Assembly (NCBI RefSeq): GCF_016820655.1
Contig: NZ_WSFT01000037.1
Location: forward strand, 1-24,000
Source of the DNA: Anaeromonas frigoriresistens
GTDB taxonomy: Bacteria > Bacillota > Clostridia > Tissierellales > SIT17
Direction of reading: 5' to 3'
Length of the DNA stretch: 24,000 nt
Below, one piece after another: positions 1 through 18,214 of this stretch (within the stretch, counting starts at the first letter, position 1; each line of letters starts with the position of its first letter). A model generated the notes under the pieces. The model ran no database searches and was not told the DNA's origin. It saw only the letters and a list, made by a program, of their open reading frames with translations. The position numbers and the translations under genes were made by a program.

Positions 1-62
1 TGTTCCACTATTAATACCTTACCTAAGGCTATGCCCGGAGAAGCACTAGTACCTGTAAACAT
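1..62 (-). CDS. ptsI: PTS enzyme I (PEP-protein phosphotransferase), first ~20 codons only; the gene runs off the left edge
   Basis: Too short for the ORF track. The reverse complement of 1-62 reads ATG TTT ACA GGT ... = MFTGTSASPGIALGKVLIVE, which matches the conserved EI N-terminus (ASPGIA.GK). A GAAAGGGG SD lies at 70-77, 7 nt upstream. The gene sits 14 nt after the HPr stop, in the classic ptsH-ptsI order. Confidence 0.7.
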   Translation of the reverse strand, partial: MFTGTSASPGIALGKVLIVE

Positions 63-76
63 ATAATTACCCCTTT

Positions 77-343
77 CTAAGCTTGATTGAAATTTGATTC
101 TATTAATTTTACTAATCCTTCAACTGCTTCTTTCTCATCGCTACCTTCAGCTATAATTGTAATTATATCTCCTTCAACTGCTCCCATGCTTAAGATTCCC
201 ATTATACTCTTAGCATTGTATTCTTTATCACCGTTTATTGCTTTAATTTCTGATTTATATTTAGAGGATTCACTAACAAAAAGACTGGCTGGTCTTGCAT
301 GTAATCCTGTTTTATTTGTTATTTTAACTTCACTTTTAATCAT
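77..343 (-). CDS. ptsH: Phosphocarrier protein HPr
   Basis: 88 aa. The His15 active-site motif TNKTGLHARPAS and the Ser46 regulatory motif NAKSIMGILSMG are both intact. SD AAGAGG lies upstream. Confidence 0.95.
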   Translation of the reverse strand: MIKSEVKITNKTGLHARPASLFVSESSKYKSEIKAINGDKEYNAKSIMGILSMGAVEGDIITIIAEGSDEKEAVEGLVKLIESNFNQA

Positions 344-367
344 ATCTTGATAACCTCTTTTCTTTTA

Positions 368-1102
368 TTAGTTTATATTTAGATATTCTGCTATTTCTTT
401 ATCTATTATTATTGTTACATTAGAATGTACTTGTAGTATAGATGCTGGTACATTTGTACTAACCTTACCATCTATTATTTTAGAGATAATCTCTTTTTTG
501 TTCTCTCCATTGGCCAATAAAAGTATCCTTTTTGATTTCATTATCGATGCTAATCCCATAGTAATTGCTTTCTTAGGTACTTCTTCTATAGAATCGAAGA
601 ATCTGCTGTTTGCTTTGATTGTATTTGTCTCTAAATCAACTAGGTGGGTACCAGTAGATAATTCTTCTCCAGGTTCATTAAATCCTATATGTCCATTGAC
701 TCCTATTCCTAATAGTTGAAGATCTATTCCACCCTTCTTTTCTATCAAGGCATCATAATCTTTACATTCTTTCTCTATATCTTCTGTTAATCCATTTGGA
801 ATATGAGTGTTGTTCATATTAATATTCACATTATTAAATAAATTCTTTTTCATGAAGTATGAATAACTTTGTTCATGAGTTGAATCTAATCCATAGTACT
901 CATCTAAATTAAATGTCTCAACTTTAGAAAAGTCTAAGTCTTCCTCTCTATGCAAATTCACTAGTTCCTTATAGGTACCTATAGGTGTACTCCCTGTAGC
1001 TAGACCTAGTATAGGATTAGATTTTGTTTTTATTTCTTGGGCAATTATATCAGCTGCCTTTTTACTTAATTCTTCATAATCTTTCGCTACTATTATTTTC
1101 AT
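368..1102 (-). CDS. nagB: Glucosamine-6-phosphate deaminase/isomerase
   Basis: 244 aa. MKIIV..LGLATGSTPIGTYKEL..FNLDEY..IGVNGHIGFNEPG are typical NagB motifs. SD GGAGGA lies 8 nt upstream. The start is 1 nt after the upstream gene's stop. Confidence 0.95.
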   Translation of the reverse strand: MKIIVAKDYEELSKKAADIIAQEIKTKSNPILGLATGSTPIGTYKELVNLHREEDLDFSKVETFNLDEYYGLDSTHEQSYSYFMKKNLFNNVNINMNNTHIPNGLTEDIEKECKDYDALIEKKGGIDLQLLGIGVNGHIGFNEPGEELSTGTHLVDLETNTIKANSRFFDSIEEVPKKAITMGLASIMKSKRILLLANGENKKEIISKIIDGKVSTNVPASILQVHSNVTIIIDKEIAEYLNIN

Positions 1103-1103
1103 G

Positions 1104-2318
1104 TTACTTATCCTCCACTAATAACCTATAGAAACTCTCACCATTTTCAGGGTTTGATACATTAAAATACTCAGCTACTGTAGCTGCTATATCTGATAGA
1201 GTCTCTCTCTCTCCGATATTAATATTATTTAACCCTTTGCCATATGCCAGTAGAAATGTTTTTTCTCTAGTATGTTGACTATGACCAATAGTAGGATCAT
1301 TCCCATGATCTGCACTTATAAAGAGAATATCTTCCTCAGTCATTTTTTCTAATATATTTCCTAGATATTTATCTGCAAGCATAATTTTATCCGCATATCC
1401 TTGAATATCTTCTGCATGGCCTCTCAAATCTGTTTCTTGAACGGTGGCTGAGATTAATCCTTCATTCATTTTATCTATATTTTCTATTATTTTTTTCATT
1501 ACTAGTTCAGTATCTACTGCCGGTATTTTTGTTGCTTTTTCACATTCTATTATATCTTGCATTTTACCTATTAAGGTAACTTCTCTATTTTCTTTAGTTA
1601 AAATACTTGAAATTTGTTTAGAAGGGTCTACCCCATATCCCATATGTCTAGCTTGATAATCTTTTTTATATACTCCTGATTTTGGTGAATTAACTCCAAC
1701 TAAACCATCATCTCGCTGTTCTATGCTATTAATGAGTTGCTCTGGACTAACTTCATGACCCCCTAAGGCTATTACCCTATTTACTTTTACATTTTTCCTT
1801 ACAACTTGTCCTATTTCCATAACTTTTTCAAAGGATATATAGTCTAATGGAGCACTTATATTGTATATCTGTCCATAATCAGTTTCTATATTATCTGCTA
1901 CTATAACTACTTTATTAACTAATAAATATTGTTTTTCTAGGTCAGGTATTTCTACTTCATAGCCTTCTTTTTCTAAAGCTTCTTTTACTTCATCTATACA
2001 ATCAACAAAGGGTTTCATCAAAGGTTTTTTAGGATCAGTACCCATTATTTCCTGATGCCCTGCGTAACTATCTGCTCCATAATGTTTAAGGTTTAGCTTA
2101 CCATAACTACCTTCATTCTCAACACTTTTTAGTCTCTCATGCTTTAAAATTTTATTTATACCTAACTTTTCTAAATTAGGTATCTCTATTTTATCAGCTT
2201 TATCTAATATATGTTGAAAGGTATTAGCTCCTTTATCTTGGGGTCTAGTCTCCACTACATCATCCATGTAGCCCACCCCTAAACTATCTAATATTAGTAC
2301 AATTGCTCTTTTTTTCAA
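1104..2318 (-). CDS. YhfW-like phosphopentomutase-family metalloenzyme (alkaline-phosphatase superfamily phosphomutase)
   Basis: 404 aa. The N-terminus KKRAIVLILDSLGVGYMDD and the motif SADHGNDPT(I)GHS are the DeoB/YhfW-type metal-binding motifs. The start codon is TTG (plus-strand caa at 2316-2318), preceded by AAGGCGGTGA. Confidence 0.85.
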   Translation of the reverse strand: MKKRAIVLILDSLGVGYMDDVVETRPQDKGANTFQHILDKADKIEIPNLEKLGINKILKHERLKSVENEGSYGKLNLKHYGADSYAGHQEIMGTDPKKPLMKPFVDCIDEVKEALEKEGYEVEIPDLEKQYLLVNKVVIVADNIETDYGQIYNISAPLDYISFEKVMEIGQVVRKNVKVNRVIALGGHEVSPEQLINSIEQRDDGLVGVNSPKSGVYKKDYQARHMGYGVDPSKQISSILTKENREVTLIGKMQDIIECEKATKIPAVDTELVMKKIIENIDKMNEGLISATVQETDLRGHAEDIQGYADKIMLADKYLGNILEKMTEEDILFISADHGNDPTIGHSQHTREKTFLLAYGKGLNNINIGERETLSDIAATVAEYFNVSNPENGESFYRLLVEDK

Positions 2319-2331
2319 TTAAATCACCGCC

Positions 2332-3507
2332 TTATCTAAGTTTATTTCCAAAACTGTCATAAACTCCAATAATTCTAGGTTCATCCTTTTGTATTCCTTC
2401 TACTAAGACAACTTCACTTCTTGTTACAAATATTTGTGTTCTAAAGGAATAGATTACAGTATCTCCTACTGATGCTTTTTTCTCTCCTATTTTTAAAGTC
2501 CCATAATAATCTATAGATTCTGGAGATACTTCTTCCGCTTCTAGTATATTTTCTTTCATAGCTTTAAAGTCTGTACCAACCATTGCTTTTTTTAATCTAG
2601 ATCTTCTATAAAATCCTCCCCCATATACATAGGCTTTATCTTCAAAACAATGGGATATCTCACTTAAATAAATCATAGCCGGTATCTCTTCTAACACATT
2701 ATTCCCATGAAGAGGAGTGGTTCCTGTTAGGGCGTGACCTGGTTCTCCATGGGTTCCCCCTATTTCTTTGAGTAATGGTAAAGATGCTATAGTGTTAGCA
2801 CTAGGAGTATTTATCTGCTTTATATCTATATCCAATTCTTCACTTAGTTTATTTGCACACCTTATTGCTGTATTTGCATTTTCTGTAGGTTGAATTTGAT
2901 TTTCATTACAGGTATATAAAAAGCATGGGAAGGCTGTAACTCCTACTATATTTACACCTTGTAGCATTTTTATTTCTTTTGCCTTTTTTATTAATTCTTC
3001 TTCTTTAAATCCTCCAACTTGACCTTCATAAATCATATCCTTAGATCCTACTACTTTTAGTAGTATATCCTGTTTCATTCCTAAATTTATAGCTTCTTCT
3101 GATATCTCTTTTGCTTTTTCTACAGTAAAGACAGTAATAACTTCTGGTTTATAAAATAATATTTGTTTAATCATATTAGTAGGTATTTGAACTAAATGTC
3201 CAACATTTCCTAATTTTATCCCAGCTTCAGCTAATCTTATTGCTTCCCAAGGGTCCACTGCCACAGCTTTTTCTATACCACTTTCAGCAATCACTTTAGC
3301 TACTTCAGGGTTCCTTCCTATCTGTTTTGTCATCATATATAATTTTATATTTAATTCTTCAGCTTTCTTTGCAAGTTTTGTAGCATTAGATCTTATAGCA
3401 TCTATATCTAGGATGTATGAATTAGGCTTTATGTCTCCATTTCTATGAAAATCAATTGCGCTTTTTATCAGTCCTTCATTTCTTTTTATCGTCATATCTA
3501 GAAACAT
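2332..3507 (-). CDS. YhfX-like PLP enzyme (alanine-racemase N-terminal, fold-type III; putative amino-acid racemase/lyase)
   Basis: 391 aa. Candidate PLP-lysine context LYMMTKQIGRNP, with a TIM-barrel-like N-terminal part and a beta C-terminal part. The start abuts the upstream stop (3508). SD AAGGAAGGTGAG. Confidence 0.75.
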   Translation of the reverse strand: MFLDMTIKRNEGLIKSAIDFHRNGDIKPNSYILDIDAIRSNATKLAKKAEELNIKLYMMTKQIGRNPEVAKVIAESGIEKAVAVDPWEAIRLAEAGIKLGNVGHLVQIPTNMIKQILFYKPEVITVFTVEKAKEISEEAINLGMKQDILLKVVGSKDMIYEGQVGGFKEEELIKKAKEIKMLQGVNIVGVTAFPCFLYTCNENQIQPTENANTAIRCANKLSEELDIDIKQINTPSANTIASLPLLKEIGGTHGEPGHALTGTTPLHGNNVLEEIPAMIYLSEISHCFEDKAYVYGGGFYRRSRLKKAMVGTDFKAMKENILEAEEVSPESIDYYGTLKIGEKKASVGDTVIYSFRTQIFVTRSEVVLVEGIQKDEPRIIGVYDSFGNKLR

Positions 3508-4614
3508 TTATTTCTCACCTTCCTTTAAAACCCTTTTTATAGATTCTTCTAATACTCGAAGAACTGTATTTGAACCTGATCTCATCGGATTTATACGTAT
3601 CATATAATCCTCCAATTTAGGATCCGATTTTAGGAAGGTACCTGAAACTCTATAAAACATAGCCGTCACTTCATATCTTGATTCAGCTCCTATTGGGTAA
3701 GGTGCCGCACCTAATTTTGTACTGTTTTCTAGAACTTTTTTAGCTATAGGCTCCTCAAATTCTACTAATATTACTCTAGATTGAGCATTTGCTATAAATG
3801 CTGATTTAACCCCTTCTACTCTTCCAGCATTTAATATTTCTATTACTTTATTAATTTCCTGAGCTTGTATTGCTAAAGATACAGGAGCATATACTAGGGA
3901 TCTTAAGGCATCCATAGCTTCATGACCTTGAACTTGGCTACCTCCTGAATAGTTAATTCTTCGTATTTCTTCTATTATATTTTTCTTTCCCACTACACAG
4001 CCTACTCCTTGAGGTCCTAATAGTTTAAATAAAGAAAAAGCGCTGACATCTGCTCCTAACTCTATTCCTATTTTTTCAGCTTTCATTACAACATAATTAT
4101 CATCTATTAATATAGTAATACCCTTATTTACATCTTTAATTTTTTTTATAACTACTTCTAAATCATATTTATCATCTAACTTTTGTCTTGAGTGTTGTAT
4201 AAGTGCAAAATCTACAGCTTTAAATTTTTCTTTATCTTCCTCTAAAATATTGTTAAAGTCTACCTTCAGAGTTTCCAATCCCATAGATTCTACTATAATC
4301 TTTGTTGTTGGATATATAGGAGCATCATGGATTAATATTTTTTGTGTAGGTTTTAGAACTGAATTCATAACATTTCTTATGGCTCCTGTGCCTGACCCTC
4401 GAACTAGGACAGCATCTTCTGCTCCAAAAAATTGAGCTAGAACATTTTCCACTTTTCGAGTATATTTAGGTTGACCTATTCCTGGTACTACTCCTAGGTC
4501 TCCTCCTTGAAAAAATTCATTCCCATCAAAATTTTGATGGATTATATCAACTAATTTAAATTGCATTTCTTTTGCTTTTTCTATATCTACAGTCCTTATA
4601 GGATATGCTTTCAT
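3508..4614 (-). CDS. YhfS-like PLP-dependent enzyme (fold-type I, aminotransferase/SelA-like)
   Basis: 368 aa. Glycine-rich loop RGSGTGAI, aspartate ILIDDNY, and candidate Schiff-base lysine in SAFSLFKLLGPQG. SD TAGGAGG. Confidence 0.75.
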   Translation of the reverse strand: MKAYPIRTVDIEKAKEMQFKLVDIIHQNFDGNEFFQGGDLGVVPGIGQPKYTRKVENVLAQFFGAEDAVLVRGSGTGAIRNVMNSVLKPTQKILIHDAPIYPTTKIIVESMGLETLKVDFNNILEEDKEKFKAVDFALIQHSRQKLDDKYDLEVVIKKIKDVNKGITILIDDNYVVMKAEKIGIELGADVSAFSLFKLLGPQGVGCVVGKKNIIEEIRRINYSGGSQVQGHEAMDALRSLVYAPVSLAIQAQEINKVIEILNAGRVEGVKSAFIANAQSRVILVEFEEPIAKKVLENSTKLGAAPYPIGAESRYEVTAMFYRVSGTFLKSDPKLEDYMIRINPMRSGSNTVLRVLEESIKRVLKEGEK

Positions 4615-4625
4615 ATATAAACCTC

Positions 4626-5534
4626 CTATATATCTAATAAGTTTTTTGGATTTTGTTTTAACATAGTATCAATTTCTTCTTTACTTACTCCTGCTTTTAA
4701 AAGTTTCGGAATAAAATTATCTAATAAATAACTATATCCAATTCCTCCATTGACAGCTAAGTGAGATTTCCTAGTTATGTCTTGAGATAATACTATTTGA
4801 TTTAAATGTCCTCTATTTATTAACTCTTTAATATGTTTCACCCTATTTTCATCAGATTGATAATTAGATTTACCAATGGTATCAAAGGCCAAGTAACATC
4901 CATTATCAGCAATTCTTAGATGATAATCTAAATCACAATTTAAGTCTAAATGACCGATTACCACTTTATTAAGATCAATATTATTTTCTTTCATAAATTT
5001 TATTTGCTCTAATGCATAGGTCCCTAATGTTGTATGGGTTGAAAATGGTCTTCCTGTTTCAATGTGTGCCCTTGCTGCTACTTTAAATACCTTGTGTTCC
5101 ATCGGTGTCATAGTATCTTTACTAGTACCAATTTCTCCTATTACATGAGCTTTTGCATTAGTCCCATCTATTCCTTCTAATATATCTTTAATCAATAATT
5201 TACTTAGCTCTTTCTTTTCCATTTCATATACGTAAGATGGTAAAAATGGTTCCTTGTAAAATCCAGTGCTAGCTACTACATGAATTCCCGCCTCATTAGA
5301 TATTTTTTTCATTACTTCTATGTTTCTACCCATACCTCTATTTGTAACTTCTACAAGAGTATCTATACCTTTTTCCTTTATTAATTTCATTTCTTTAATC
5401 AAAGATTCTATATCATCAAATCTCGTATCTAAATCTTTCTTTTGTGATGATAAATCTATACTTAAATGTTCATGTATATAGGTGTTTCCTAAGTCATCTT
5501 TATTAATTATTCCATTAATAGTTGCTATACTCAT
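4626..5534 (-). CDS. php: Phosphotriesterase homology protein (amidohydrolase superfamily, Php/YhfV type)
   Basis: 302 aa. HxH motif TYIHEHLSIDL, bridging-Glu context VIGEIGTS (as in E. coli Php rather than a carbamylated Lys), and later His/Asp ligands STHTT, IGHLD, LSQD. SD AGGAGGG. Confidence 0.9.
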   Translation of the reverse strand: MSIATINGIINKDDLGNTYIHEHLSIDLSSQKKDLDTRFDDIESLIKEMKLIKEKGIDTLVEVTNRGMGRNIEVMKKISNEAGIHVVASTGFYKEPFLPSYVYEMEKKELSKLLIKDILEGIDGTNAKAHVIGEIGTSKDTMTPMEHKVFKVAARAHIETGRPFSTHTTLGTYALEQIKFMKENNIDLNKVVIGHLDLNCDLDYHLRIADNGCYLAFDTIGKSNYQSDENRVKHIKELINRGHLNQIVLSQDITRKSHLAVNGGIGYSYLLDNFIPKLLKAGVSKEEIDTMLKQNPKNLLDI

Positions 5535-5555
5535 ATTATTCCCTCCTAATTTAGT

Positions 5556-6674
5556 CTAAATAAAGCCCTTATTCTTTTTCTTATATCCTTCTATAAAATA
5601 TCTGCTATATAATTCTGGAACAGAATACAGTTTTCTTATCATATCACCTAATTTTATAGCTGATTTCCCACTTTCTAGTCCCTTCTTTGCAATAATTAAT
5701 ACTCCTATCCCTAATTCCCTAGTGGGAATAGTTACAGCAGTAGCATCAATCATATTAGCTACTTTTAATAGATATTTTCCAGACTCATTCTGTATATTAG
5801 AGCCAACCTTCCCCCATGTACCTAACACTGAATCTCCTAAACCATATATATCTATCGGTCCTTCCATTGTGATGATAATATCTATATCTTCTTTAAATAT
5901 TTCCTCACAAAAAGGAATCGCCTCAAGTCTACTTTCTATCTTATTAAAATCTTTTTCAATTATTTCTACAGAATCTTTAATCCCATCTATAACTCCATTT
6001 AAAGATTCCCTCATGTCTATTCCATTTGGTAATAAAATAGATTCTTTTTTAGGGATAACAATTTTTATTTTTTCATTTTTGTTTTCATCAATACTTACAT
6101 TTTTTTTAGTTATAAGAGTTTCTATTGCTGATTTACATATATCATAACTATGAGATATAACTCCAATCCCTGGAGTGAACTTTATATTATCAGTTGATGC
6201 TTTAATACTAGTTCCTTTAAGCCCCATTCCCTTAGCCATTATCGAAAATAAACCAGTACTAATTGCAGGAGCTAAAACTGATCCGCCCCCATCTGTTCCT
6301 ATTGCCAAATCATTTATTCCTTTTAGTATGTTAACGCATCCTCCACTGGATGAACCTGTCATTACTCTGCCAGTTAATGGATTTATTAAGTCTATATCTA
6401 TAGCCCTACCTCTTTCGGACATCTTATCTATAGTATGAAATAAATAACCATTATTTTCTTTTAATCTTTCTACCAGTTTTTTATCTATTTCTTCTGTATT
6501 CTTAACACCAAATAATACTAAAGAACTATCCGGATTTTCTTCCAGAGTAATAACAGCTTCTTCCAATATTTCTTTTCTACAATATACTACACTACCTTCT
6601 TCTTCCTTAGCCTTTAAGACTGCTTTACTTACTTTATTCATTTGCATTAGTATATTTTTCTGTGTTGAATCCAT
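5556..6674 (-). CDS. Divergent, short amidase-signature (AS) family protein
   Basis: 372 aa. AS core MTGSSSGGCVNILKGINDLAIGTDGGGSVLAPA corresponds to canonical GGSSGG...GTD.GGS(I/V)R.PA, so the cis-Ser and the nucleophile Ser are retained. Candidate Lys in VLFGVKNT. SD AAAGGAG. Confidence 0.6.
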   Translation of the reverse strand: MDSTQKNILMQMNKVSKAVLKAKEEEGSVVYCRKEILEEAVITLEENPDSSLVLFGVKNTEEIDKKLVERLKENNGYLFHTIDKMSERGRAIDIDLINPLTGRVMTGSSSGGCVNILKGINDLAIGTDGGGSVLAPAISTGLFSIMAKGMGLKGTSIKASTDNIKFTPGIGVISHSYDICKSAIETLITKKNVSIDENKNEKIKIVIPKKESILLPNGIDMRESLNGVIDGIKDSVEIIEKDFNKIESRLEAIPFCEEIFKEDIDIIITMEGPIDIYGLGDSVLGTWGKVGSNIQNESGKYLLKVANMIDATAVTIPTRELGIGVLIIAKKGLESGKSAIKLGDMIRKLYSVPELYSRYFIEGYKKKNKGFI

Positions 6675-6692
6675 ATTAAAACTCCTTTTTTT

Positions 6693-6726
6693 CTAATAAA
6701 GTCAAGGTTTCCCTTGACTTTATTAG
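6693..6726 (-). promoter_or_regulatory. Intra-operon perfect stem-loop (15-bp stem, GAAA loop on the mRNA strand) between yhfT-like and the amidase gene
   Basis: CTAATAAAGTCAAGG-TTTC-CCTTGACTTTATTAG on the plus strand. On the minus-strand transcript the loop is GAAA, followed by AGAAAAAAAGGAG (no U-tract). It sits in the only large gap (70 nt) of the operon. Confidence 0.5.
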
Positions 6727-6744
6727 GTTCATTACTATATTTTT

Positions 6745-8025
6745 TTATGCTGGAGGTGTAAATAATCCTATTACTGAAAGAATGTTAACTAATATTCCTA
6801 CTATTATTGCAGATATTGGTCCTACTGCCATTTTAACTACTGGTTTACCTGCTATTTCATTTAATATATAAAGACCTATAACAATAAAGAACCCTATACC
6901 AGGAGCAATCGCATTAGCAGCATTCATACCCCCTACTAATAGTGCTATTTCTAGAAGTTTTGACATTGCAGTACGGATATTATCGCCAGACTTTCTTACT
7001 CCAGGGAATTTATCTAAAAGCTTTGAAATTTTATCTAGGAATAATACTTCTCCACCTATAACAAGAGCACCAGCAATAGCTGCTACGATAGGATTCGCGA
7101 TAAATAAACCTATTGCGAATACAAATGTCATTCCTACAGGGGCATATACTCCAGTTGCTATAGCAGTTGATGCTATTAAAGGTATAAATCCTATACCTCT
7201 TGCTAAAGCTGCAAAACCAGCGTCAATTGCTTTTCCATCTTTTAATAAGTTAAGAGATATTGGGTCTCCTGCCATAAGATCCATAGCAGTAGCTGCTGCC
7301 ACAAGACCACCCATAACCATTAAGTATGGTACATTTTTCTTGATTCTCTTTACTCTCTCTCCAAATACAGACACTAAGTCCACAGCTTCTTCATCTGATT
7401 TTTCTCTTACTGCAAAAATAATTAATATAATCATACCTACAATTAGAGCAGAACCTTCTGGATTAATATTTATTGAAACTGCTCCTATAGCTAATGGACT
7501 TACTACTATGGCTAATTGTCTTGCTAATACTGAAAATCCTAAATTTATTAAACCTTTTTTAGCTCCATACTGATATCCAGTAGCAAGAGCTGGGAATGCT
7601 GCAAAGGCTATTACTATTGGAGCTCCTACTTCCCCTAAACTTCCCATGAAGTTAACAGGTAGTAATTCGAAAGCTTTTACTATACTTTCTAATCCAAGTA
7701 ATATTCCTGCACCATATAAAGCACCTATTATCCCAGAGATTACTAGTCCTTTTTTGCCATCTGGTGAAGATGTACCAATTATATCTGTACCTAATAATAT
7801 TGAATGTATCAGAATAATACTTGCTGTTAATGAAAATGGGATACCAAACCCTATAACTAATCCAAAACTCATTGCAAAAGAAGTAGCTGCAAGTTCTTTT
7901 CTACTCATTCTTCCCTCGATATGTTCTGGCATTATAGGTCTTAACCCGTCATTAAATACTGCTATACCTTTATTGGCCATAATAGAAGCTAAGGCTCCAA
8001 TTAAAGCTATTAATATGATATTCAT
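6745..8025 (-). CDS. YhfT-like polytopic membrane protein (putative transporter)
   Basis: 426 aa. Almost entirely hydrophobic and Gly/Ala/Ile-rich, with about 10-12 spans by eye. It sits next to a DUF2620 gene, as in the E. coli yhfU-yhfT pair. SD AAGGGGGAAG. Confidence 0.8.
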   Translation of the reverse strand: MNIILIALIGALASIMANKGIAVFNDGLRPIMPEHIEGRMSRKELAATSFAMSFGLVIGFGIPFSLTASIILIHSILLGTDIIGTSSPDGKKGLVISGIIGALYGAGILLGLESIVKAFELLPVNFMGSLGEVGAPIVIAFAAFPALATGYQYGAKKGLINLGFSVLARQLAIVVSPLAIGAVSININPEGSALIVGMIILIIFAVREKSDEEAVDLVSVFGERVKRIKKNVPYLMVMGGLVAAATAMDLMAGDPISLNLLKDGKAIDAGFAALARGIGFIPLIASTAIATGVYAPVGMTFVFAIGLFIANPIVAAIAGALVIGGEVLFLDKISKLLDKFPGVRKSGDNIRTAMSKLLEIALLVGGMNAANAIAPGIGFFIVIGLYILNEIAGKPVVKMAVGPISAIIVGILVNILSVIGLFTPPA

Positions 8026-8047
8026 TGTCTTCCCCCTTAATTATTAT

Positions 8048-8410
8048 TTATTTTTTTAAAATTTCATTTACAATAATAGGAACTGCTTTTTCGTAATGAT
8101 CACCAGTAAATCCAAATGCTACTTTTCCTTCTGATACTGCCTTAACTATTTCTTCTTCTTTAGGTTGCTTACCTGGCATAGATACTGTTGCACATTTATC
8201 TCTAGTTAATAAAGCTATGGCCATACTTAATGCTCCACCACCACCAGTGTGACAAGCTCCTAAATAATAATCAGCCTTTCCTGTCTTAACAGCATTAGCA
8301 GCTTGTATATCAGATTTTACTACTACTTCTACCTTTTCACCCCCTAATTCTTTTACTAAATCAGCTATACTCTGTTTTTCTACTTGTCCACCAACTACAA
8401 ATTTAATCAT
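8048..8410 (-). CDS. YhfU-like small soluble protein (DUF2620)
   Basis: 120 aa. Beta-alpha N-terminus MIKFVVGGQ. Cys-His in a glycine-rich loop, YYLGACHTGGGGALSMAIAL. SD GAGGAGG. Confidence 0.75.
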   Translation of the reverse strand: MIKFVVGGQVEKQSIADLVKELGGEKVEVVVKSDIQAANAVKTGKADYYLGACHTGGGGALSMAIALLTRDKCATVSMPGKQPKEEEIVKAVSEGKVAFGFTGDHYEKAVPIIVNEILKK

Positions 8411-8427
8411 TTATATTCCTCCTCTTT

Positions 8428-8787
8428 TTATTTTTTTACTAAAGTACATGCATGCAATGCTAAGAATCCTTTTTCTGATTCTGGTATTTCTATATTTAGT
8501 TTTGTTTCAATTGCTTCATAAAATTCAGGTAGTTCACAATAAATTTCACTTTGTTTAACTTCTTCTAATGCCATTTCATTCATCTCTTCTATTTCTTCAC
8601 CTTTCTTTATCCTAGATAAAGCCATAGCTAAATGAGTCACTAACATAGAGGAATTTTCTTCGGTCATTTCTAAGGAATATTTGTTTTCGAATTTACTAAT
8701 AAATTCTAAAGTAGCCTCCTTTATATCTTGACTTATCTCGCCAGCTTCTTTTAATATATCCAGTCTTTGTTTCAGTAATTTATCCAT
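8428..8787 (-). CDS. YhfY-like stand-alone PRD-domain protein
   Basis: The track ORF starts at 8814, but GGAGGG sits 8 nt before the ATG at 8787 (MDKLLKQRLD...). It is a single PRD with both conserved His contexts (LVTHLAMALSRIKKGE and GFLALHACTL). No RNA-binding, DNA-binding or EII domain is present. Confidence 0.8.
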   Translation of the reverse strand: MDKLLKQRLDILKEAGEISQDIKEATLEFISKFENKYSLEMTEENSSMLVTHLAMALSRIKKGEEIEEMNEMALEEVKQSEIYCELPEFYEAIETKLNIEIPESEKGFLALHACTLVKK

Positions 8788-8809
8788 TTTTAAAACCCTC
8801 CACTCAATG

Positions 8810-8827
8810 TACATTTTTTTGTATATT
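8810..8827 (-). promoter_or_regulatory. Copy 1 of an 18-bp conserved motif (plus strand TACATTTTTTTGTATATT; gene strand AATATACAAAAAAATGTA), 23 nt upstream of the yhfY-like start
   Basis: Identical to 9804-9821. Contains the inverted repeat TACA-N8-TGTA (ATACA-N6-TGTAT in copy 2). Confidence 0.4.
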
Positions 8828-8840
8828 AATCTAAAAAAAA

Positions 8841-9779
8841 CTAATATATTGGTATTATTTCATTATTCATAACTTTTTTTTGAATTTTTTCTACTTCTTT
8901 TAAATCAATAAATCTATTTAATATATTTCCAAATTCTTTATTATTCTTACTTATTACAACCACTGCTATAGTATCTTCTTTAGCAAGTTCTCTTGTCTTC
9001 TTGCTTGATAAAGGACAAATATTATATTCTAGATTTTTTTCCTTTATCTCATCCACATTCCAAATAGCTGCATCAACTTCATCATTCTTCATTTTTTGTA
9101 GTATTTGATTATAAGGAGTTTCTACGTACTCCACTTCCTTATCTCTACATTCATTTGAAGTAAGTATTACTTGATCTATAGAATTAGTATCTATTGCTAT
9201 TCTCATGCCATCTTTAATATTACTTTCATTTTTATCTCTAAAAATCACAACATGATTTCCTACATAACTACCTTCGCCAAATTCATGTACTATTTCAATA
9301 TCAGAAGATTTTCTTATTTCTAATTTAGCTGCTAACTTTGAAATTATAGTAAAACTATATTTACCTAATGTTAATGCTTCTATTCTTTTTGAAGACCCTC
9401 TCATAAAAGCTAAACTGAAAGGTATATCTCTTTCCTCAAAACCTTTATAAAGACCAGTAGCTAACCCCTCATATCTTTTAGAATAAGGTAAAGGCATTAC
9501 CCCCATTATTACACTGAAATCCGAGACTTCCCATAGTTTTTTATAATTTATTCTAACTATATAAGTACCTAAATGGCCTCTAGATTCTAATTCTAACCCA
9601 TTAATTTCTTGTAGAAACTTAAGGGCTGATTGAACTGTACCTCTTGCTGTATTAAAAATTTCAGTATATTGACTTACTGTCTTTATTCTATCACCTTCAT
9701 AATAAGTCAACATTTCTCTAGCTAATAGTATAATTACTCTTCCATTTTTGGACATTAGTTTATTTTTATAATCATTCAT
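8841..9779 (-). CDS. YhfZ-like transcriptional regulator (N-terminal wHTH plus periplasmic-binding-protein-like effector domain)
   Basis: 312 aa. HTH region IKTVSQYTEIFNTARGTVQSALKFLQE, followed by a PBP type-2-like alpha/beta domain. It is the first gene of the cluster. GAGAGG lies 11 nt upstream of the ATG. Confidence 0.75.
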   Translation of the reverse strand: MNDYKNKLMSKNGRVIILLAREMLTYYEGDRIKTVSQYTEIFNTARGTVQSALKFLQEINGLELESRGHLGTYIVRINYKKLWEVSDFSVIMGVMPLPYSKRYEGLATGLYKGFEERDIPFSLAFMRGSSKRIEALTLGKYSFTIISKLAAKLEIRKSSDIEIVHEFGEGSYVGNHVVIFRDKNESNIKDGMRIAIDTNSIDQVILTSNECRDKEVEYVETPYNQILQKMKNDEVDAAIWNVDEIKEKNLEYNICPLSSKKTRELAKEDTIAVVVISKNNKEFGNILNRFIDLKEVEKIQKKVMNNEIIPIY

Positions 9780-9803
9780 ATTAAATTCAACCTCTCAGGA
9801 GAA

Positions 9804-9821
9804 TACATTTTTTTGTATATT
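9804..9821 (-). promoter_or_regulatory. Copy 2 of the 18-bp motif, 25 nt upstream of the yhfZ-like start and 8 nt downstream of the predicted -10
   Basis: 18/18 identical to 8810-8827. It overlaps the predicted transcription start, so it is a candidate operator or leader element. Confidence 0.4.
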
Positions 9822-9829
9822 GTAATTCC

Positions 9830-9857
9830 ATTATAACAGATTAAATATAAAATTCAA
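9830..9857 (-). promoter_or_regulatory. Sigma-A-type promoter of the yhf-like operon
   Basis: The minus strand reads TTGAAT-16 nt-TATAAT with TGT immediately upstream of the -10 (extended -10). On the plus strand, ATTCAA is at 9852-9857 and ATTATA at 9830-9835. Confidence 0.55.
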
Positions 9858-10083
9858 GGATATAATTATAATTTTCTTTCAATTTTTCTATACAGAAAAT
9901 ATTTCAAAAAAATTTAGTACTAATCAAATAAGGTTATATATGTAATAGAGTACCTAAAAGATTACTACATTTATATCTATGAAAGTATATAATCGTTAAA
10001 AAATTAGGTAGTATGTGATAAAATGTTTATGAAGACGAAATATTCGCATCTCGAAATATTATTATGCAAAAAGGATGTTTTAA

Positions 10084-11487
10084 ATGGTAAATTTGTCAGA
10101 TGATTTAACACCGAAAAAAATGAGAAAAAATATATTGAATTTAGCTTGGCCTGCAGCTCTAAGGATGTTTTTACAAAGTATTGTAGGTATAGTGGATATT
10201 ATGATGGTGGGAAGTATAGGGGCCCACGCTTTAGCCACTGCTGATGTTAGTAATAGGTTTGTTTTTGTTACTATAGGAATATTATCTGCTTTAACTATGG
10301 GCTCTACAGCTTTAGTCGCAAGGTATAAAGGAGCTAAAGACTCTATAAAAACTGATAATATAATAATTCAATCTCTACTAGCTGGTTTTATATTATCCAT
10401 AATTGTTGCAGTTTTAGGCTTTATTTTTGCTAAGGATATTCTAAATGGAATGATGATATTAATGGATGAAGTTGATCCTTTTATATTAACTGAAGGAAAT
10501 ATATATCTAAAAATAGTATTTACTTCTATGATTTTTGCTCTACCCACTTTGATGATTAATTCTATTCTTCAAGGATTAGGAGATATGAAAACTCCTTTAT
10601 ATATAATGGTACTAACAAATATAGTAAATGTCCTTGGAAATTACTTATTTATTTTTGGTATTGGATTTTTACCACAGCTTGGAGTTACGGGAGCTGCTCT
10701 AGGTACTGGCCTTGGAAGACTGGTTGGTTTCTTAGTAGCTATATATGTATTATCAAGTAAAAGAACTGTTATTAAGATACATTTCGATAAGGTAAAGTGG
10801 AAGCTTGATTGGGATATTATAAAAGAAATATTAAATATAGGAGTTCCTGCCTCAGTAGAACAATTAGTTAGACAAGGAAGTCAGATAATATATACTATTT
10901 TAGTTTCAGGGTTAGGAACTATAACTATAGCATCAAATGCTTTAGCAATGAATATTAATTCCTTACCAATGATGATAGGATTTGGCTTTGGATTAGCTGC
11001 TACTACTTTGGTAGGTCAAAGCTTAGGAGCAGGTAAAGAAGATTTAGCCACAGAATATGGGAAGCAGACTACTTATATAACTATGATAATAATGACAATA
11101 ATATCTATCCCAATGTTTATTTGGGTAGAGCCTATAATCAAACTATATACTACTAACCCTGAAGTTATATCCTTATCCAAACCGGTAGTAAGAATGGTAA
11201 TAACTATCCAACCTATATTTGCAATCTATATAGTTTTAGTGGGAGCATTAAGAGGTGCTGGTGATACTAGATTTACTATGTTTACTACTATGGTTGGTAA
11301 TTGGACCGGAAGATTACTTTCAAGTCTTTTCTTTGGATATGTTTTAGGATTAGGACTAATAGGTTTTTGGATAGGAATGATGATAGATATATCATCAAGA
11401 GCTTTAATAGTATTTTACCGATTCAAATCTAAGAAGTGGCAAAGAATATATGATAGAAAAGAAAATATAAGTAAAAAAGCAGCTTGA
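10084..11487 (+). CDS. MATE-family efflux transporter
   Basis: 467 aa with 12 hydrophobic spans. The typical MATE N-terminus (ILNLAWPAALRMFLQSIVGIVDIMMVG) is repeated in the second half (ILNIGVPASVEQLVRQG). Confidence 0.9.
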   Translation: MVNLSDDLTPKKMRKNILNLAWPAALRMFLQSIVGIVDIMMVGSIGAHALATADVSNRFVFVTIGILSALTMGSTALVARYKGAKDSIKTDNIIIQSLLAGFILSIIVAVLGFIFAKDILNGMMILMDEVDPFILTEGNIYLKIVFTSMIFALPTLMINSILQGLGDMKTPLYIMVLTNIVNVLGNYLFIFGIGFLPQLGVTGAALGTGLGRLVGFLVAIYVLSSKRTVIKIHFDKVKWKLDWDIIKEILNIGVPASVEQLVRQGSQIIYTILVSGLGTITIASNALAMNINSLPMMIGFGFGLAATTLVGQSLGAGKEDLATEYGKQTTYITMIIMTIISIPMFIWVEPIIKLYTTNPEVISLSKPVVRMVITIQPIFAIYIVLVGALRGAGDTRFTMFTTMVGNWTGRLLSSLFFGYVLGLGLIGFWIGMMIDISSRALIVFYRFKSKKWQRIYDRKENISKKAA

Positions 11488-11492
11488 AATAG

Positions 11493-11538
11493 ATAATACC
11501 TATACAAGAATTCTTGTATAGGTATTATTCTTTTTTTT
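11493..11538 (+). terminator. Rho-independent terminator of the MATE gene
   Basis: Perfect 18-bp palindromic arms ATAATACCTATACAAGAA|TTCTTGTATAGGTATTAT, followed by TC and T8. Confidence 0.8.
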
Positions 11539-11551
11539 ACCATATTAAAGC

Positions 11552-12502
11552 TTAAATTGAAAATTCAAAATCGTCTATTGAATATTCATCATCTTTATCT
11601 TCATTTTTATCTTCACTTTCTCTTTTGCAAGAATCAGATAATAGGGGTAAATCACAAGCTTTAGCTCTAGATGGGAAAAGTATCACTTGTTCATAATTAG
11701 TCGGATACAAATCTGCATCAAACTCTTCTGTTATTGGTTTATCAATAATGTTGTCATTTTCATCATATTGACTATTTAATACATCTACAATTATATTTCC
11801 AATTTGTCTACCTAGCCGTAATCCTTCTGAAAGATCAGCTGGAAAATGTACCCCACCATATAGTCTAGATAATGAATTTTCTTCTGCTAATTCTCTTAAC
11901 TTATTAGCTTCTGATGGAAAGAAATAGCTTAGTATAACTTCTGCTGTCCCAGAAATAACTGAATGTCCAGAAGGATAAGCTGGAAATTTAGGAGTACATA
12001 TCTCTGTAACTAATTCTTGATCTAGCTGGTTTGGTCGTGCTACATCCCAAAGATACTTATAGTACCAAGCAACTATAAAAGCATCATTTATACCAGCATG
12101 AACTGCTGCTAGTACTCTAGCTGCATATACAGGAGTAAGTCTGTAAGTATCTATTAGTCTATCAATTATGGGTGTCCACTGTTTAGTTGCAGGCCCATCT
12201 CCCCAATACTCTGCTATTACTTTCTCCTCCTGAGTCAGATTATCCAGGGTTTCTTTAACTATTAAAAGCTCTTTATTGAAGTTAAAATAGTCTGGATTCA
12301 ATATATCAAAATTAATAACTTTACCATCTAATGTTGTAAACTCTCCTTCTGTATTTCTATCCATAAAATACAATGGCCATGATCCAGCATTAGGATCTAG
12401 TCCCTGGGGAACTGTGTCTTCTCCTGCATATGGTAATTCAGACCATTTTCTTGACAAATTTATATCTGAACATTTTTTATTTTTATATGAGTCTATATTC
12501 AT
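11552..12502 (-). CDS. PAP2-superfamily / vanadium-haloperoxidase-like protein (acid-phosphatase-related), soluble, no signal peptide
   Basis: 316 aa. All three PAP2 motifs are present: KYLWDVARP (Kx6RP), PSGHS, and SRLYGGVHFPAD (SRx5Hx3D). I see no N-terminal hydrophobic segment. The C-terminal tail is acidic (ESEDKNEDKDDEYSIDDFEFSI). SD GGAGGG. Confidence 0.75.
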   Translation of the reverse strand: MNIDSYKNKKCSDINLSRKWSELPYAGEDTVPQGLDPNAGSWPLYFMDRNTEGEFTTLDGKVINFDILNPDYFNFNKELLIVKETLDNLTQEEKVIAEYWGDGPATKQWTPIIDRLIDTYRLTPVYAARVLAAVHAGINDAFIVAWYYKYLWDVARPNQLDQELVTEICTPKFPAYPSGHSVISGTAEVILSYFFPSEANKLRELAEENSLSRLYGGVHFPADLSEGLRLGRQIGNIIVDVLNSQYDENDNIIDKPITEEFDADLYPTNYEQVILFPSRAKACDLPLLSDSCKRESEDKNEDKDDEYSIDDFEFSI

Positions 12503-12665
12503 AGTAACCCTCCAACATATGACTTTTCTTAGTTCAATATATGTTAGAAAATATTTCTATGATACTAATGGTGTGTTAAATTCAGAATATTTTTTTAATT
12601 TTTAGATATATATCATATATTATGATAAAATAGACTATAATATTAAAGGTGGGAGGGTTGTACTT

Positions 12666-14675: not shown

Positions 14676-14700
14676 AATTCCTCTCCTTATTATTTTTCTT
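14663..14700. terminator. Probable bidirectional terminator between convergent genes
   Basis: AGGAGAAGAAT-AGA-ATTCCTCTCCT (6 bp + 1 mismatch + 4 bp stem), followed by TATTATTTTTCTT on the plus strand. The loop contains the LtaS-like stop codon. Confidence 0.55.
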
Positions 14701-14947
14701 TCCAATACTTAGAGCCATCCCTTTTTCTGGACAATAGTTTATAATCAATCATTCCTCTTCTTATCATGAAATAATCTCCATAAGTATGCCATTTATCAAT
14801 GATATCATTTACTTCTTTTTCACTATATTCTTTACCTTCTTCAAATTTATCAGCTATGTATTTTACTACTTCTATTTTTAATAAATGTTTTGAAGGCCAA
14901 CTTTTGACTCTTCCCTTTTCATCTAAGAAGTTTTCAAATTTAGACAT
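14690..14947 (-). CDS. DUF2087 domain protein (small)
   Basis: The track ORF extends to 15019 and overlaps the upstream gene. AAAGGTAGGGGAG precedes the ATG at 14947 (MSKFENFLDEKGRVKSWPSK...). The C-terminus YFMIRRGMIDYKLLSRKRDGSKYWK is the DUF2087 signature. It is paralogous to the C-terminus of the upstream gene. Confidence 0.7.
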   Translation of the reverse strand: MSKFENFLDEKGRVKSWPSKHLLKIEVVKYIADKFEEGKEYSEKEVNDIIDKWHTYGDYFMIRRGMIDYKLLSRKRDGSKYWKEK

Positions 14948-14957
14948 TTTATCTCCC

Positions 14958-15722
14958 CTACCTTTCTTTAATCCAATAGCTACTACAATCTTTAGTTCTA
15001 TCAAAAAATCCATATTCAATTAAATATCGTCTTATAGTAGCTATATCAGGATAAATTAATTTTAATATATTGTTTAATTCTTTTTCTGTGTACTTTTTTT
15101 CTTGATCAAATATTGATGCAATCTCTCTTAAAACAGAAATTTTTCTTTTCTCCTTTGATGGAAAGGATTTTAATATTAATGGATCTTGTGATTCAAAATA
15201 TGTGTTTATTACCTTCTTATGTTCATTATTAGTTATAATGTATCGTTCATCTAACATTTTTGCTCCTCCATGAGGTTTAACTAATCTCTCCTTTGAATCT
15301 TGATTAGTTAATAACTCCACCGACTCAAAAATTGCCAGATATAATTTTGCCTGTTTAGCCTTTTCTCTAAGTATGAATCTTTGATGTCTAACTGTGGAAG
15401 GGGCTATTCCATTCTTCTTAGCAATTTCCTTGTCCGATAGCCCTTTAGATATATCTTTTAATAAACTACTTTGTTTTTCAGTTATGCCAGTATATTTTTT
15501 ATCATAACTTAGTAAATTTTCTAATACTCCTCCATGTACTACCTTATTGTGCTCTTTTATTGCTTTATATGCTTCATATAAACGGTTTTCTATTTCATAA
15601 ATTCGTCCAATCTCAAAGATATCCCCACATTGTAAACATTTATAATGTTCTTCTTTGGAATTAAACTTGTAACCATTTTTTATTTCATTTAACTCCGAAT
15701 CAAAAATTTGGTTATCCATCAT
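14958..15722 (-). CDS. Transcriptional regulator: Cys-containing N-terminal region, LuxR/GerE-like HTH and C-terminal DUF2087 domain
   Basis: 254 aa. HTH LSDKEIAKKNGIAPSTVRHQRFILREKA. C-terminal KISVLREIASIF..YTEKELNNILKLIYPDIATIRRYLIEYGFFDRTKDCSSYWIK parallels the downstream small protein. GGAGGG lies 2 nt before the first ATG and 5 nt before the second (15719). Confidence 0.7.
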   Translation of the reverse strand: MMDNQIFDSELNEIKNGYKFNSKEEHYKCLQCGDIFEIGRIYEIENRLYEAYKAIKEHNKVVHGGVLENLLSYDKKYTGITEKQSSLLKDISKGLSDKEIAKKNGIAPSTVRHQRFILREKAKQAKLYLAIFESVELLTNQDSKERLVKPHGGAKMLDERYIITNNEHKKVINTYFESQDPLILKSFPSKEKRKISVLREIASIFDQEKKYTEKELNNILKLIYPDIATIRRYLIEYGFFDRTKDCSSYWIKER

Positions 15723-15742
15723 AACCCTCCTTCAGTTTGCTT

Positions 15743-15777
15743 AATATATAAACATTTTATAATATTGTTTATATATT
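15743..15777. promoter_or_regulatory. Perfect 12-bp inverted repeat with 11-bp spacer (candidate operator) in a divergent promoter region
   Basis: AATATATAAACA-TTTTATAATAT-TGTTTATATATT. The spacer contains TATAAT. The element lies 21 bp upstream of the HTH-DUF2087 start codon. Confidence 0.45.
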
Positions 15778-16343: not shown

Positions 16344-16346
16344 ATT

Positions 16347-18207: not shown

Positions 18208-18214
18208 ATGAAAG

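Follow-up and report, generated by a model that had tools for sequence, protein, structure and literature searches.

The yhf/php genes form one of the larger gene blocks of Escherichia coli K-12 without an assigned function, and the question raised here is what a Clostridial relative of this block, in which genes of known chemistry are added, tells about the system. The relative is found in Anaeromonas frigoriresistens, also named Clostridium sp. D2Q-11, at the left end of a DNA stretch of 24,000 nucleotides (contig NZ_WSFT01000037.1, positions 1 to 24,000), which as a whole is referred to as the window. In addition to all eight yhf/php families, the locus encodes an amidase, the glucosamine-6-phosphate deaminase NagB and the general proteins HPr and Enzyme I (EI) of the phosphotransferase system (PTS). 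An earlier note, made from the sequence alone, had described the cluster as lacking an assigned function, and the literature searches returned no paper assigning one. The locus is a member of an already known, uncharacterized system, and its gene additions are common to many relatives. These additions suggest a metabolic direction for the yhf system. The reading put forward here, which we regard as evenly poised between right and wrong, is a PTS-dependent, substrate-inducible catabolism of an amide-linked amino-sugar phosphate that ends at glucosamine-6-phosphate (GlcN-6-P) and is encoded by the nine-gene Clostridial yhf/php form together with nagB-ptsH-ptsI.

Gene Content of the Locus

The left 9.9 kb of the window consist of 12 co-directional minus-strand genes, which run from position 9779 to beyond position 1 in the order yhfZ-yhfY-yhfU-yhfT-amidase-php-yhfS-yhfX-yhfW-nagB-ptsH-ptsI (Table 1). 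Recomputation gave the same genes, intergenic gaps (53, 17, 22, 70, 21, 11, 0, 13, 1, 24, and 14 nt), Shine-Dalgarno (SD) sequences and promoter as the earlier note had listed. A GGAGG-like SD sequence is located 6–10 nt upstream of every start codon of the 12 genes. For the yhfY-like gene, the true start is the ATG at 8787 behind GGAGGG, which the open reading frame (ORF) lister prolongs to 8814.

The presence of all eight families, encoded together, was confirmed by Pfam and NCBIfam searches, which place the ORFs accordingly, and by blastp, in which the proteins share 30–52% identity with those of E. coli K-12. YhfZ contains the domains HTH_41 and YhfZ_C and exceeds the cut-off of NF041241 (YhfZ_full, 405.8 bits against 260); its effector domain resembles amino-acid-binding proteins (SBP_bac_3, E = 5e-4). 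Php carries a PTE domain (305 bits), YhfS the domain YhfS-like_C, YhfX the domains Ala_racemase_N and YhfX-like_C, and YhfW a Metalloenzyme domain with a PRK12383 score far above the cut-off of 254. By its sequence, the Php of the window is best assigned to the E. coli Php subtype: its best PDB match is E. coli Php (288 bits to 1BF6), followed by 3PNZ as the nearest solved relative (145.7 bits). With PRK09875, however, it stays below the equivalog cut-off (339 bits against 486), and with the next NCBIfam family, the phospho-furanose lactonase NF045706, it scores 138.5 bits (cut-off 630). The PDB entries of Php, YhfS, YhfX, and YhfZ (1BF6/4LEF, 4J8L, 4KBX, and 2OZZ) were deposited as uncharacterized. 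Furthermore, YhfX weakly matches 3-hydroxy-D-aspartate aldolase, and YhfS matches beta/gamma-lyases and TIGR03576.

Catalytic and cofactor-binding residues were scored for conservation over 70–80 sequences including E. coli. At least 95% conserved are the metal ligands of Php (H21, H23, E134, H167, H195, D252) and YhfW (D11/D297/H301/D337/H338/H349), the residues K61 of YhfX and K197 and D171 of YhfS, and, in 78 sequences, both His52 and His112 of the PRD protein YhfY. The latter is closest to PRD1 of LicT and GlcT, carries no RNA-binding domain and is present in essentially every locus examined.

Recurrence of NagB, HPr, and EI

Related loci were collected by a YhfT-alignment scan with one genome per species, in which at least 373 species with the gene were detected and the best 80 loci were analyzed. 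These genome loci include 68 complete clusters, and some counts were made over 72 genome loci. A YhfW scan of metagenomes added 80 loci, and dereplication at 90% YhfW identity resulted in 102 lineages. All counts are lower bounds and many contigs are incomplete.

The nagB product passes two equivalog models (TIGR00502, 307.1 bits vs. 236.9; NF001684, 336.8 bits vs. 326). The 20 residues of EI that are visible in the window (MFTGTSASPGIALGKVLIVE) give a weak match to PEP-utilisers_N (E = 0.011) and resemble the N-terminus of the full EI (TIGR01417, 770 bits) in the same place of locus L089. This contig of another organism, which served to assess where the unit ends on its 3′ side, has the same 12-gene order as the window at 58–85% protein identity, and a terminator consisting of a stem and T7 appears there only after ptsI.

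The earlier note had proposed a comparison across relatives for the adjacency of amidase, nagB, and ptsHI, and this showed that the arrangement is not unique to the strain. Besides the amidase (59 of the 102 lineages, see below), NagB is encoded in 7 of the 68 complete genome clusters, 11 of the 80 metagenome loci and 12 lineages, HPr in one genome cluster (Geosporobacter), 8 metagenome loci and 8 lineages, and EI in no genome cluster, 6 metagenome loci and 5 lineages. At least four arrangements of nagB were observed, among them positions after yhfW (including L135), in the gap between yhfX and the amidase gene (L073 and the L101 group) and, in L080, between yhfZ and the PRD gene but in opposite orientation. 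In L116, whose cluster has no match to NagB or Php, the gene between yhfT and ptsH-ptsI (8500–9558) encodes a double-SIS protein with relationship to NagB-II and to the isomerase domain of GlmS; this protein appears to be a non-homologous replacement of NagB with the same reaction class. HPr-EI directly 3′ of yhfW is also found without NagB (L100, L139, L164/166/168). In total, HPr or HPr-EI directly follows yhfW in at least eight sequence-distinct lineages with differing gene orders, with or without NagB, and the recurrent HPr proteins (36–71% identity) all keep His15 and Ser46. Since NagB, a NagB-II-like deaminase and HPr or HPr-EI recur in several arrangements, the adjacency of nagB/ptsHI to the yhf cluster is recurrent and not fortuitous.

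For this reason it seems unlikely that nagB-ptsH-ptsI is an ordinary housekeeping unit, transcribed independently from a promoter within yhfW or nagB and functionally unconnected with the yhf genes. Such a unit would be in line with the general nature of EI and HPr, which every PTS needs, with the canonical His15 and Ser46 of HPr, with the many yhf clusters that lack these neighbors (EI in 0/68 and HPr in 1/68 species genomes) and with the decay of nagB in a sister species in which the core persists; a promoter-like site matching in 9/12 positions is also located within nagB (921–893). However, the gaps ahead of nagB, ptsH, and ptsI (1, 24, and 14 nt) are too small for a canonical promoter or terminator, no terminator was found between yhfW and ptsI, and the last 500 nt upstream of ptsH contain no promoter-like match. 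An independent housekeeping unit would also leave unexplained why HPr or HPr-EI follows yhfW in at least eight lineages of different gene order, why NagB is embedded in differently ordered clusters (L073, L080) with a NagB-II-like gene in L116, and why the first canonical terminator of L089 appears only after ptsI.

A Compact Amidase as Regular Cluster Member

The gene between yhfT and php had been noted as similar to the amidase-signature (AS) family. The fold and the catalytic residues agree with this, but the sequence score does not reach the Pfam threshold: PF01425 matches only residues 102–143, with 23.6 bits and thus below the gathering score of 27, and the NCBIfam amidase models give 33 bits or less at cut-offs of 390–560. 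Sequence likeness to the AS family is limited to about 45 residues. About 1,077 homologues of about 370 residues each were found, and in 43 family members K58, S108, and S132, the triad positions assigned by alignment, are invariant within the motif GSSSGG...GTDGGGS. The two serines are separated by 24 residues, which is likewise the spacing in malonamidase E2. An AlphaFold 2 (AF2) model with a mean predicted local distance difference test score (pLDDT) of 91 matches more than 50 AS amidase chains in Foldseek at 12–16% identity (E = 2.5e-14 to 1e-12, template modeling (TM) score 0.52–0.67), compared to which the protein is about 80–100 residues shorter. No signal peptide was found in it. A protein of Clostridium sp. 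D2Q-11 is 100% identical to it. Because of the fold and the catalytic residues, and with the sequence score below threshold, the protein is interpreted as a divergent AS enzyme of compact size, probably active and with a predicted triad.

The amidase is encoded in 43 of the 68 complete genome clusters, in at least eight different positions, in 41 of the 80 metagenome loci and in 59 of the 102 dereplicated lineages. With a share of 58–63% in 150 related loci, it is thus a regular cluster member. Of all arrangements in the nearest 150 loci, the nine-gene form is the most frequent, and it is common outside Enterobacteria. The wording “expanded by an amidase” of the earlier note, which implies something new to this locus, is an overstatement.

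Links to the Cell Envelope

Proteins of family PF00144, to which we take the amidase AmiE of Bacillus subtilis to belong, are encoded inside or beside the cluster in 16 of the 72 genome loci and 13 of the 80 metagenome loci, in varied positions (e.g., L029 8194–9930, L044 12192–13421, L038 15750–17039). Their best NCBIfam match is PBP4B (250–323 bits, below the cut-off of 385). All but one of the proteins examined start with a signal or lipoprotein peptide, and some have C-terminal extensions (Cu_amine_oxidN1 in L022). A PBP4B-like gene is not present in the window itself. Taken together, an amidase, a PBP4B-like serine amide hydrolase or both are encoded in 52 of the 72 genome loci. The E. 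coli operon murQ-murP, which serves uptake of N-acetylmuramic acid (MurNAc) by the PTS, has PBP4B (yfeW) as its third gene (PMC5061867), and the murQRP operon of B. subtilis continues with the exported MurNAc-L-Ala amidase AmiE (PMC8054146).

A further link was found in the sister species A. gelatinilytica D2Q-14 (L018). There, a Lac/Cel-type PTS (IIB-IIC-IIA), a gene of the MupG family of 6-phospho-N-acetylmuramidases and an uncharacterized 98-aa ORF are inserted between yhfU and yhfT. Of the amidase gene and nagB, only the last 45 codons and two fragments, respectively, are left; the insertion and the remnants are located at 6253–9697, 11327–11449, and 15907–16007. An ORF similar to RidA begins after the nagB remnant.

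PBP4B and MupG both hint at fragments of the cell envelope, from which the substrate most likely comes as an amino-sugar conjugate, for example a muramyl- or glucosaminyl-amide.

A Probable Phosphorylated Intermediate and Alternative Substrates

YhfW, a member of the phosphopentomutase family, is encoded in all 68 complete genome clusters. Three Bacillaceae loci without YhfW have a gene for a PHP-domain phosphoesterase at the 3′ side (L048 14881–15699, L049 15845–16660, L051 15857–16663), which is joined by a PBP4B-like gene in two of the three. The conservation of YhfW, or its replacement by a phosphoesterase, speaks for a phosphorylated intermediate as an inherent part of the pathway.

This bears on the nature of the substrate, which could also be a peptide or amide with a D-amino acid and without any sugar; NagB and the PTS genes would then be regulatory or coincidental passengers. 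An alanine-racemase-fold enzyme, a PLP (pyridoxal 5′-phosphate) enzyme of the Cys/Met family and an amidase are what such a pathway might use, and the DD-peptidase-like PBP4B homologues as well as the SBP_bac_3-like effector domain of YhfZ would fit. Nevertheless, we hold it to be very unlikely in view of the probable phosphorylated intermediate (phosphopentomutase-family enzyme in 68/68 clusters, PHP-domain phosphoesterase in its place in three loci) and of two unrelated types of GlcN-6-P deaminase that are associated with the cluster.

Instead of a cell-wall compound, the substrate could be derived from glycation (Heyns or Amadori compounds, e.g., glucoselysine) or be an amino-sugar acid (2-amino-2-deoxy-aldonates, e.g., D-glucosaminate, or their lactones), in which case the PLP enzymes would act on an alpha-amino-beta-hydroxy acid and Php on a phospho-lactone. 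The nearest characterized-type relatives of Php are indeed phospho-sugar lactonases, the weak aldolase match of YhfX and the lyase and TIGR03576 matches of YhfS are compatible with this chemistry, and the SIS protein of L116 weakly matches the deglycase FrlB. In Salmonella, the SelA-like PLP lyase DgaE acts on D-glucosaminate-6-phosphate within a PTS operon, and the E. coli cluster adjoins the fructoselysine frl operon. This adjacency, however, was seen only in E. coli and no recurrent frl-like neighbors were found in 150 other loci; the cluster has neither a conserved aldolase nor a conserved deglycase, and the secreted PBP4B-like hydrolases and the MupG-PTS insertion would stay unexplained. 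A substrate of this kind is therefore considered improbable.

Uptake and Phosphotransfer

YhfT has no relative in the PDB and matches no EIIC family in Pfam, NCBIfam, and PDB searches; neither YhfT nor DUF2620 (YhfU) matches any EII family, and no EIIA and no canonical EIIB or EIIC could be recognized in the cluster. A dedicated EIIA was considered and rejected, as the EIIA_2 near two Vagococcus loci is part of a neighboring, separate operon that has a Mga/PRD regulator of its own. In L035 and L037, metagenome-assembled genomes of Negativicutes and Bacillota, the cluster (10001–19216) contains two paralogous yhfT genes, whose products are 58 and 47% identical to the YhfT of the window. A NYN-domain gene separates the second of them from yhfU, and genes for an amino-acid permease and an ion channel are located on the 5′ side. 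YhfZ could not be detected in these two clusters.

In 70 of 77 loci, the DUF2620 gene immediately precedes yhfT. Conserved residues of YhfU are Cys53-x-Thr55-Gly4, Cys73, and His105, and the model, of high quality (Table 1), is flavodoxin-like. The top seven PDB matches of the fold search with Foldseek are RpiB isomerases (TM 0.61–0.66, E about 1e-3), with a PTS EIIB-Lac structure at rank 13. By hhalign, Cys53-x-Thr55 is placed on the catalytic Cys66-x-Thr68 of RpiB with a probability of just 2%, and a profile search of 1.8 billion proteins returned 173 family members and no RpiB relatives. YhfU may thus be either an RpiB-like isomerase or an EIIB-like phosphocarrier. Among the family members are the proteins P0259 (PTE-DUF2620, 413 aa), P0303 (DUF2620-PRD, 267 aa) and P0304 (DUF2620-YhfT, a fragment of 294 aa), each of which is a single representative that could be a genuine fusion or an artefact of gene calling.

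These properties raise the possibility that YhfY, YhfU, and YhfT form an undescribed PTS uptake module, in which phosphate would pass from HPr~P to a PRD histidine of YhfY and on to Cys53 of YhfU as EIIB analogue, and YhfT as EIIC analogue would take up the substrate and phosphorylate it, so that the need for EI and HPr would be catalytic, too. Such a module, which we judge doubtful, would be in accordance with the frequent DUF2620-yhfT neighborhood, with the invariant Cys53, the glycine-rich loop and the flavodoxin-like fold of YhfU with EIIB-Lac among its fold matches, and with the DUF2620-PRD protein P0303. It would also fit the clusters that recurrently carry their own HPr and EI, the phosphate-handling enzymes downstream without a kinase, and the weak matches to the EF_0829/EF_0830 families, where the trio of PRD, Gly-rich Cys and membrane protein occurs as well. 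On the other hand, the YhfU cysteine follows strand 3 as in RpiB, unlike the first loop of known EIIB domains, and the best fold matches are RpiB isomerases, with the cysteine motif set on their catalytic one. In addition, YhfT resembles no EIIC family or solved structure, the fusions could be artefacts, and we know of no PRD that serves as phosphocarrier to a permease.

Quite unlikely is the more comprehensive proposal that yhf/php is a PTS-dependent salvage system for a cell-envelope amino-sugar amide with YhfY-YhfU-YhfT as a new PTS permease, which would receive phosphate from HPr without classical EIIA and EIIB. With such a permease, the presence of ptsH-ptsI immediately 3′ of the cluster in several lineages would be accounted for. 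If YhfY-YhfU-YhfT were indeed a phosphotransfer-driven permease, it would constitute a new PTS family.

Cis-Regulatory Elements and Transcription Units

The best minus-strand promoter, TTGAAT-16-TGTTATAAT with an extended -10 region, is located upstream of yhfZ (Table 1). The 18-mer AATATACAAAAAAATGTA occurs in two identical copies, one 12 nt downstream of the -10 region and the other about 1 kb away in the yhfZ-yhfY gap. Its core TACA-W6-TGTA is found twice in the window, where 0.06 occurrences are expected, and in 25 of the 72 loci it is located upstream of yhfZ or in the yhfZ-yhfY gap, compared to 0.017 per kb elsewhere (~70-fold enrichment). TACA-W6-TGTA is thus a strong candidate for the YhfZ operator. 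The region upstream of E. coli yhfZ lacks the motif, so the operator model is not directly transferable to E. coli.

The earlier note had described one operon with one promoter and without a hairpin-plus-U-tract terminator. The latter is literally true, but the 70-nt gap between yhfT and the amidase gene contains a perfect 15-bp hairpin with the GC-rich core GUCAAGG/CCUUGAC, which is followed by UUUAUU. The hairpin is kept in orthologous gaps with compensatory changes: in seven sequences, 94.8% of the cells are paired, five pairs are changed on both sides, and none of 500 shuffles reaches the score. More distant Clostridial loci have unrelated GC-rich hairpins with U3-5 tracts in the same gap, and in the Bacillaceae clusters, where php follows yhfT after 10–20 nt, there is no hairpin in the gap. 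Possible functions of the element are partial termination or attenuation, or a role in mRNA stability or processing. Immediately upstream of it, a promoter-like site overlaps the end of yhfT (6762–6734, TTTACA-17-TATAGT, 10/12), and a corresponding site, TTTACA-16-TAATAT, is present in L089 (9919–9946). As the -35 region lies in codons of the conserved YhfT C-terminus, the conservation may be due to coding alone. Terminator-like matches at 4541, 6546, and 1186 of the minus strand were dismissed, since they are located inside genes, have weak stems and are no more than shuffles give. A scan of the whole window with Rfam detected no family and no known riboswitch or RAT-type antiterminator.

The single-operon description agrees with the gaps of nagB-ptsHI, which leave no room for a canonical promoter or a terminator, but is overstated with regard to the covarying hairpin and the second operator-like copy. 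The short gaps and SD sites favor co-transcription, whereas the hairpin and the promoter-like sites at 6762–6734 and 921–893 make a single transcript uncertain.

Proposed Pathway

Several lines of evidence are combined in the proposed amide-linked amino-sugar phosphate pathway. The universal PRD protein with two conserved histidines and the repeated capture of ptsH(-ptsI) indicate dependence on PTS phosphotransfer, NagB and its NagB-II-like substitute indicate that hexosamine-6-phosphate is made in at least some lineages, and most loci encode a cytoplasmic AS amidase or an exported PBP4B-like hydrolase, which speaks for a precursor with an amide linkage. YhfZ, with a winged helix and a binding-protein-like effector domain, would bind TACA-W6-TGTA at the promoter and ahead of yhfY, and YhfY would couple expression or uptake to phosphotransfer by EI and HPr. 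The substrate would be imported by YhfT, partnered with YhfU, and its amide bond would be cut by the compact AS enzyme, or elsewhere by a secreted PBP4B-like hydrolase outside the cell. Php might then hydrolyze an ester, lactone or lactam of the phosphorylated intermediate, YhfW might shift the phosphate, and the two PLP enzymes might handle the alpha-amino-acid-like part. The sugar part would exit as GlcN-6-P, which NagB would convert to fructose-6-phosphate and ammonia. The order of reactions, also that put forward in the earlier note, is conjecture, and the parts given to YhfU and YhfT are tentative.

Several observations weigh against this pathway. NagB is restricted to ~12% and HPr/EI to 5–8% of the lineages, and all three are missing in E. 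coli and in most Bacillaceae loci, so GlcN-6-P may be a product of lineage-specific substrates only. Clusters of the E. coli type carry no accessory gene at all. The sister species has lost the amidase and nagB and has kept the core, so both genes are accessories and not part of the core chemistry. No kinase, etherase or glycosidase is recognizable in the cluster, which leaves the step of phosphate entry unexplained, and a Pfam search of 86 flanking or embedded extra ORFs found no further family with more than two members. In addition, the hairpin after yhfT may divide the locus into two transcription units, the fold match of YhfU to RpiB is marginal, and no functional study of yhfSTUWXYZ/php, DUF2620 or YhfT could be found in the literature.

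With the known chemistry that the Clostridial variants add, the list of substrates becomes short and testable: amino-sugar amides, muramyl derivatives, and de-N-acetylated cell-wall sugars. The comparative pattern also provides a testable regulatory model, consisting of YhfZ operator sites and phosphorylation of the PRD by HPr.

Coordinates and Neighboring Genes

Table 1. Features of the yhf/php locus in the window of A. frigoriresistens.
Feature	Position	Strand	Evidence
Sigma-70-type promoter TTGAAT-16-TATAAT with TG extension, upstream of yhfZ	9830–9857	-	10/12 match
Operator-like palindrome O1, TACA-A6-TGTA, candidate YhfZ site	9804–9817	.	12 nt 3′ of -10
yhfZ-like regulator, HTH_41 and YhfZ_C binding-protein-like domain	8841–9779	-	NF041241; 33% to E. 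coli YhfZ; PDB 2OZZ
Palindrome O2, second copy, yhfZ-yhfY gap	8810–8823	.	18-mer same as O1
yhfY-like stand-alone PRD protein, 119 aa, His52 and His112	8428–8787	-	Pfam; conservation in 78 sequences
yhfU-like DUF2620 protein	8048–8410	-	Pfam; model pLDDT 96.6; nearest fold RpiB/LacAB
yhfT-like polytopic membrane protein, presumed permease	6745–8025	-	600 bits; 41% to E. coli YhfT; hydrophobic throughout
Intercistronic hairpin, 15-bp arms, GAAA loop	6693–6726	-	dG (free energy) -22 kcal/mol, z = -7.8; covariation
Compact amidase-signature enzyme, 372 aa, predicted Lys58/Ser108/Ser132	5556–6674	-	Fold and invariant residues
php-like PTE-family binuclear-metal hydrolase	4626–5534	-	46% to E. coli Php; best PDB 1BF6/4LEF, then 3PNZ
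yhfS-like fold-type I PLP enzyme, Lys197	3508–4614	-	52% to E. coli; PDB 4J8L
yhfX-like fold-type III (alanine-racemase-fold) PLP enzyme, Lys61	2332–3507	-	42% to E. coli; PDB 4KBX
yhfW-like phosphopentomutase-family phosphomutase, TTG start	1104–2318	-	PRK12383, 568.8 bits; 41% to E. coli
nagB, glucosamine-6-phosphate deaminase	368–1102	-	TIGR00502, NF001684
ptsH (HPr), His15 (GLHARPA), Ser46 (KSIMG)	77–343	-	PF00381, 104.6 bits
ptsI (EI), 5′ end, 20 codons within window	1–62	-	Weak match; likeness to L089 EI

The rest of the window contains MatE, PAP2, sulfatase-family, GNAT, SOD, histidine kinase, and ABC ATPase genes, which are unrelated to the cluster; nagA was not found in the window. 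The MatE-family efflux gene (10084–11487, plus strand) is divergent from yhfZ over a 300-nt AT-rich spacer and shows no evident link to the cluster.

In the other loci, genes for methyl-accepting chemotaxis proteins (MCP), MetNIQ-like ABC transporters and FAD-dependent oxidases are sporadic neighbors. Genes for dCache chemoreceptors flank the cluster in six Clostridial loci (e.g., L019 9317–11473), and a gene for a GlcD-like FAD-linked oxidase is located directly upstream of yhfZ in the three Bacillaceae loci L059, L068, and L073 (at about 400–2550).

Comparison With Known Systems

The closest known system is the E. coli K-12 cluster yhfZ-yhfY-yhfX-yhfW-php-yhfU-yhfT-yhfS (b3383-b3376), whose gene order next to frl the earlier note had given correctly. 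Both clusters share the eight families as well as the co-directional, tightly packed arrangement, and the catalytic and PLP-binding residues are conserved in both, whereas the gene order differs and the E. coli cluster has no amidase, nagB or ptsHI. In RefSeq, the E. coli genes adjoining the frl operon are annotated as “putative” or “uncharacterized”.

An apparently paralogous design is represented by the cluster of the EF_0829-EF_0839/AHA_3910 type (TIGR03576, TIGR03577, TIGR03582; Gly_rich_SFCGS) with a stand-alone PRD, a small Gly-rich Cys protein, one or more membrane proteins, an amidohydrolase and a PLP enzyme of fold type I. The PRD, DUF2620, and YhfS proteins of the window match its families with E = 1.2e-3, 2.1e-3, and 1e-8, respectively, but all matches are far below the family cut-offs and the window proteins are thus not members. 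No functional study of the SFCGS/DUF4310-4312 system was found in the literature.

With frlABCD and the Salmonella operons dgaABCDEF and gfrABCDEF, the proposed pathway shares the logic that a phosphorylated amino-sugar derivative is led by a deglycase, deaminase or PLP lyase to glycolytic intermediates. There are no shared orthologous enzymes, and, in contrast to yhf, the frl, dga, and gfr systems rely on a kinase or on canonical EII components. Php shares its superfamily with the phospho-sugar lactonases of the PTE family (NF045706; Lmo2620, 3PNZ), which follow as its next-best matches. Work by Xiang and colleagues from 2012 reportedly provides a precedent for the hydrolysis of a PTS-delivered phosphorylated lactone.

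Finally, the MurNAc operons (E. coli murQ-murP-yfeW and B. subtilis murQ-murR-murP-amiE-nagZ-namZ) combine amino-sugar uptake by the PTS with an exported amide hydrolase and an exit via hexosamine-6-phosphate (PMC5061867; PMC8054146). While the yhf clusters lack the MurQ etherase, MurP, and NagZ, they resemble these operons in the PBP4B-like exported proteins that are encoded near many of them and in the MupG-PTS of the sister species.

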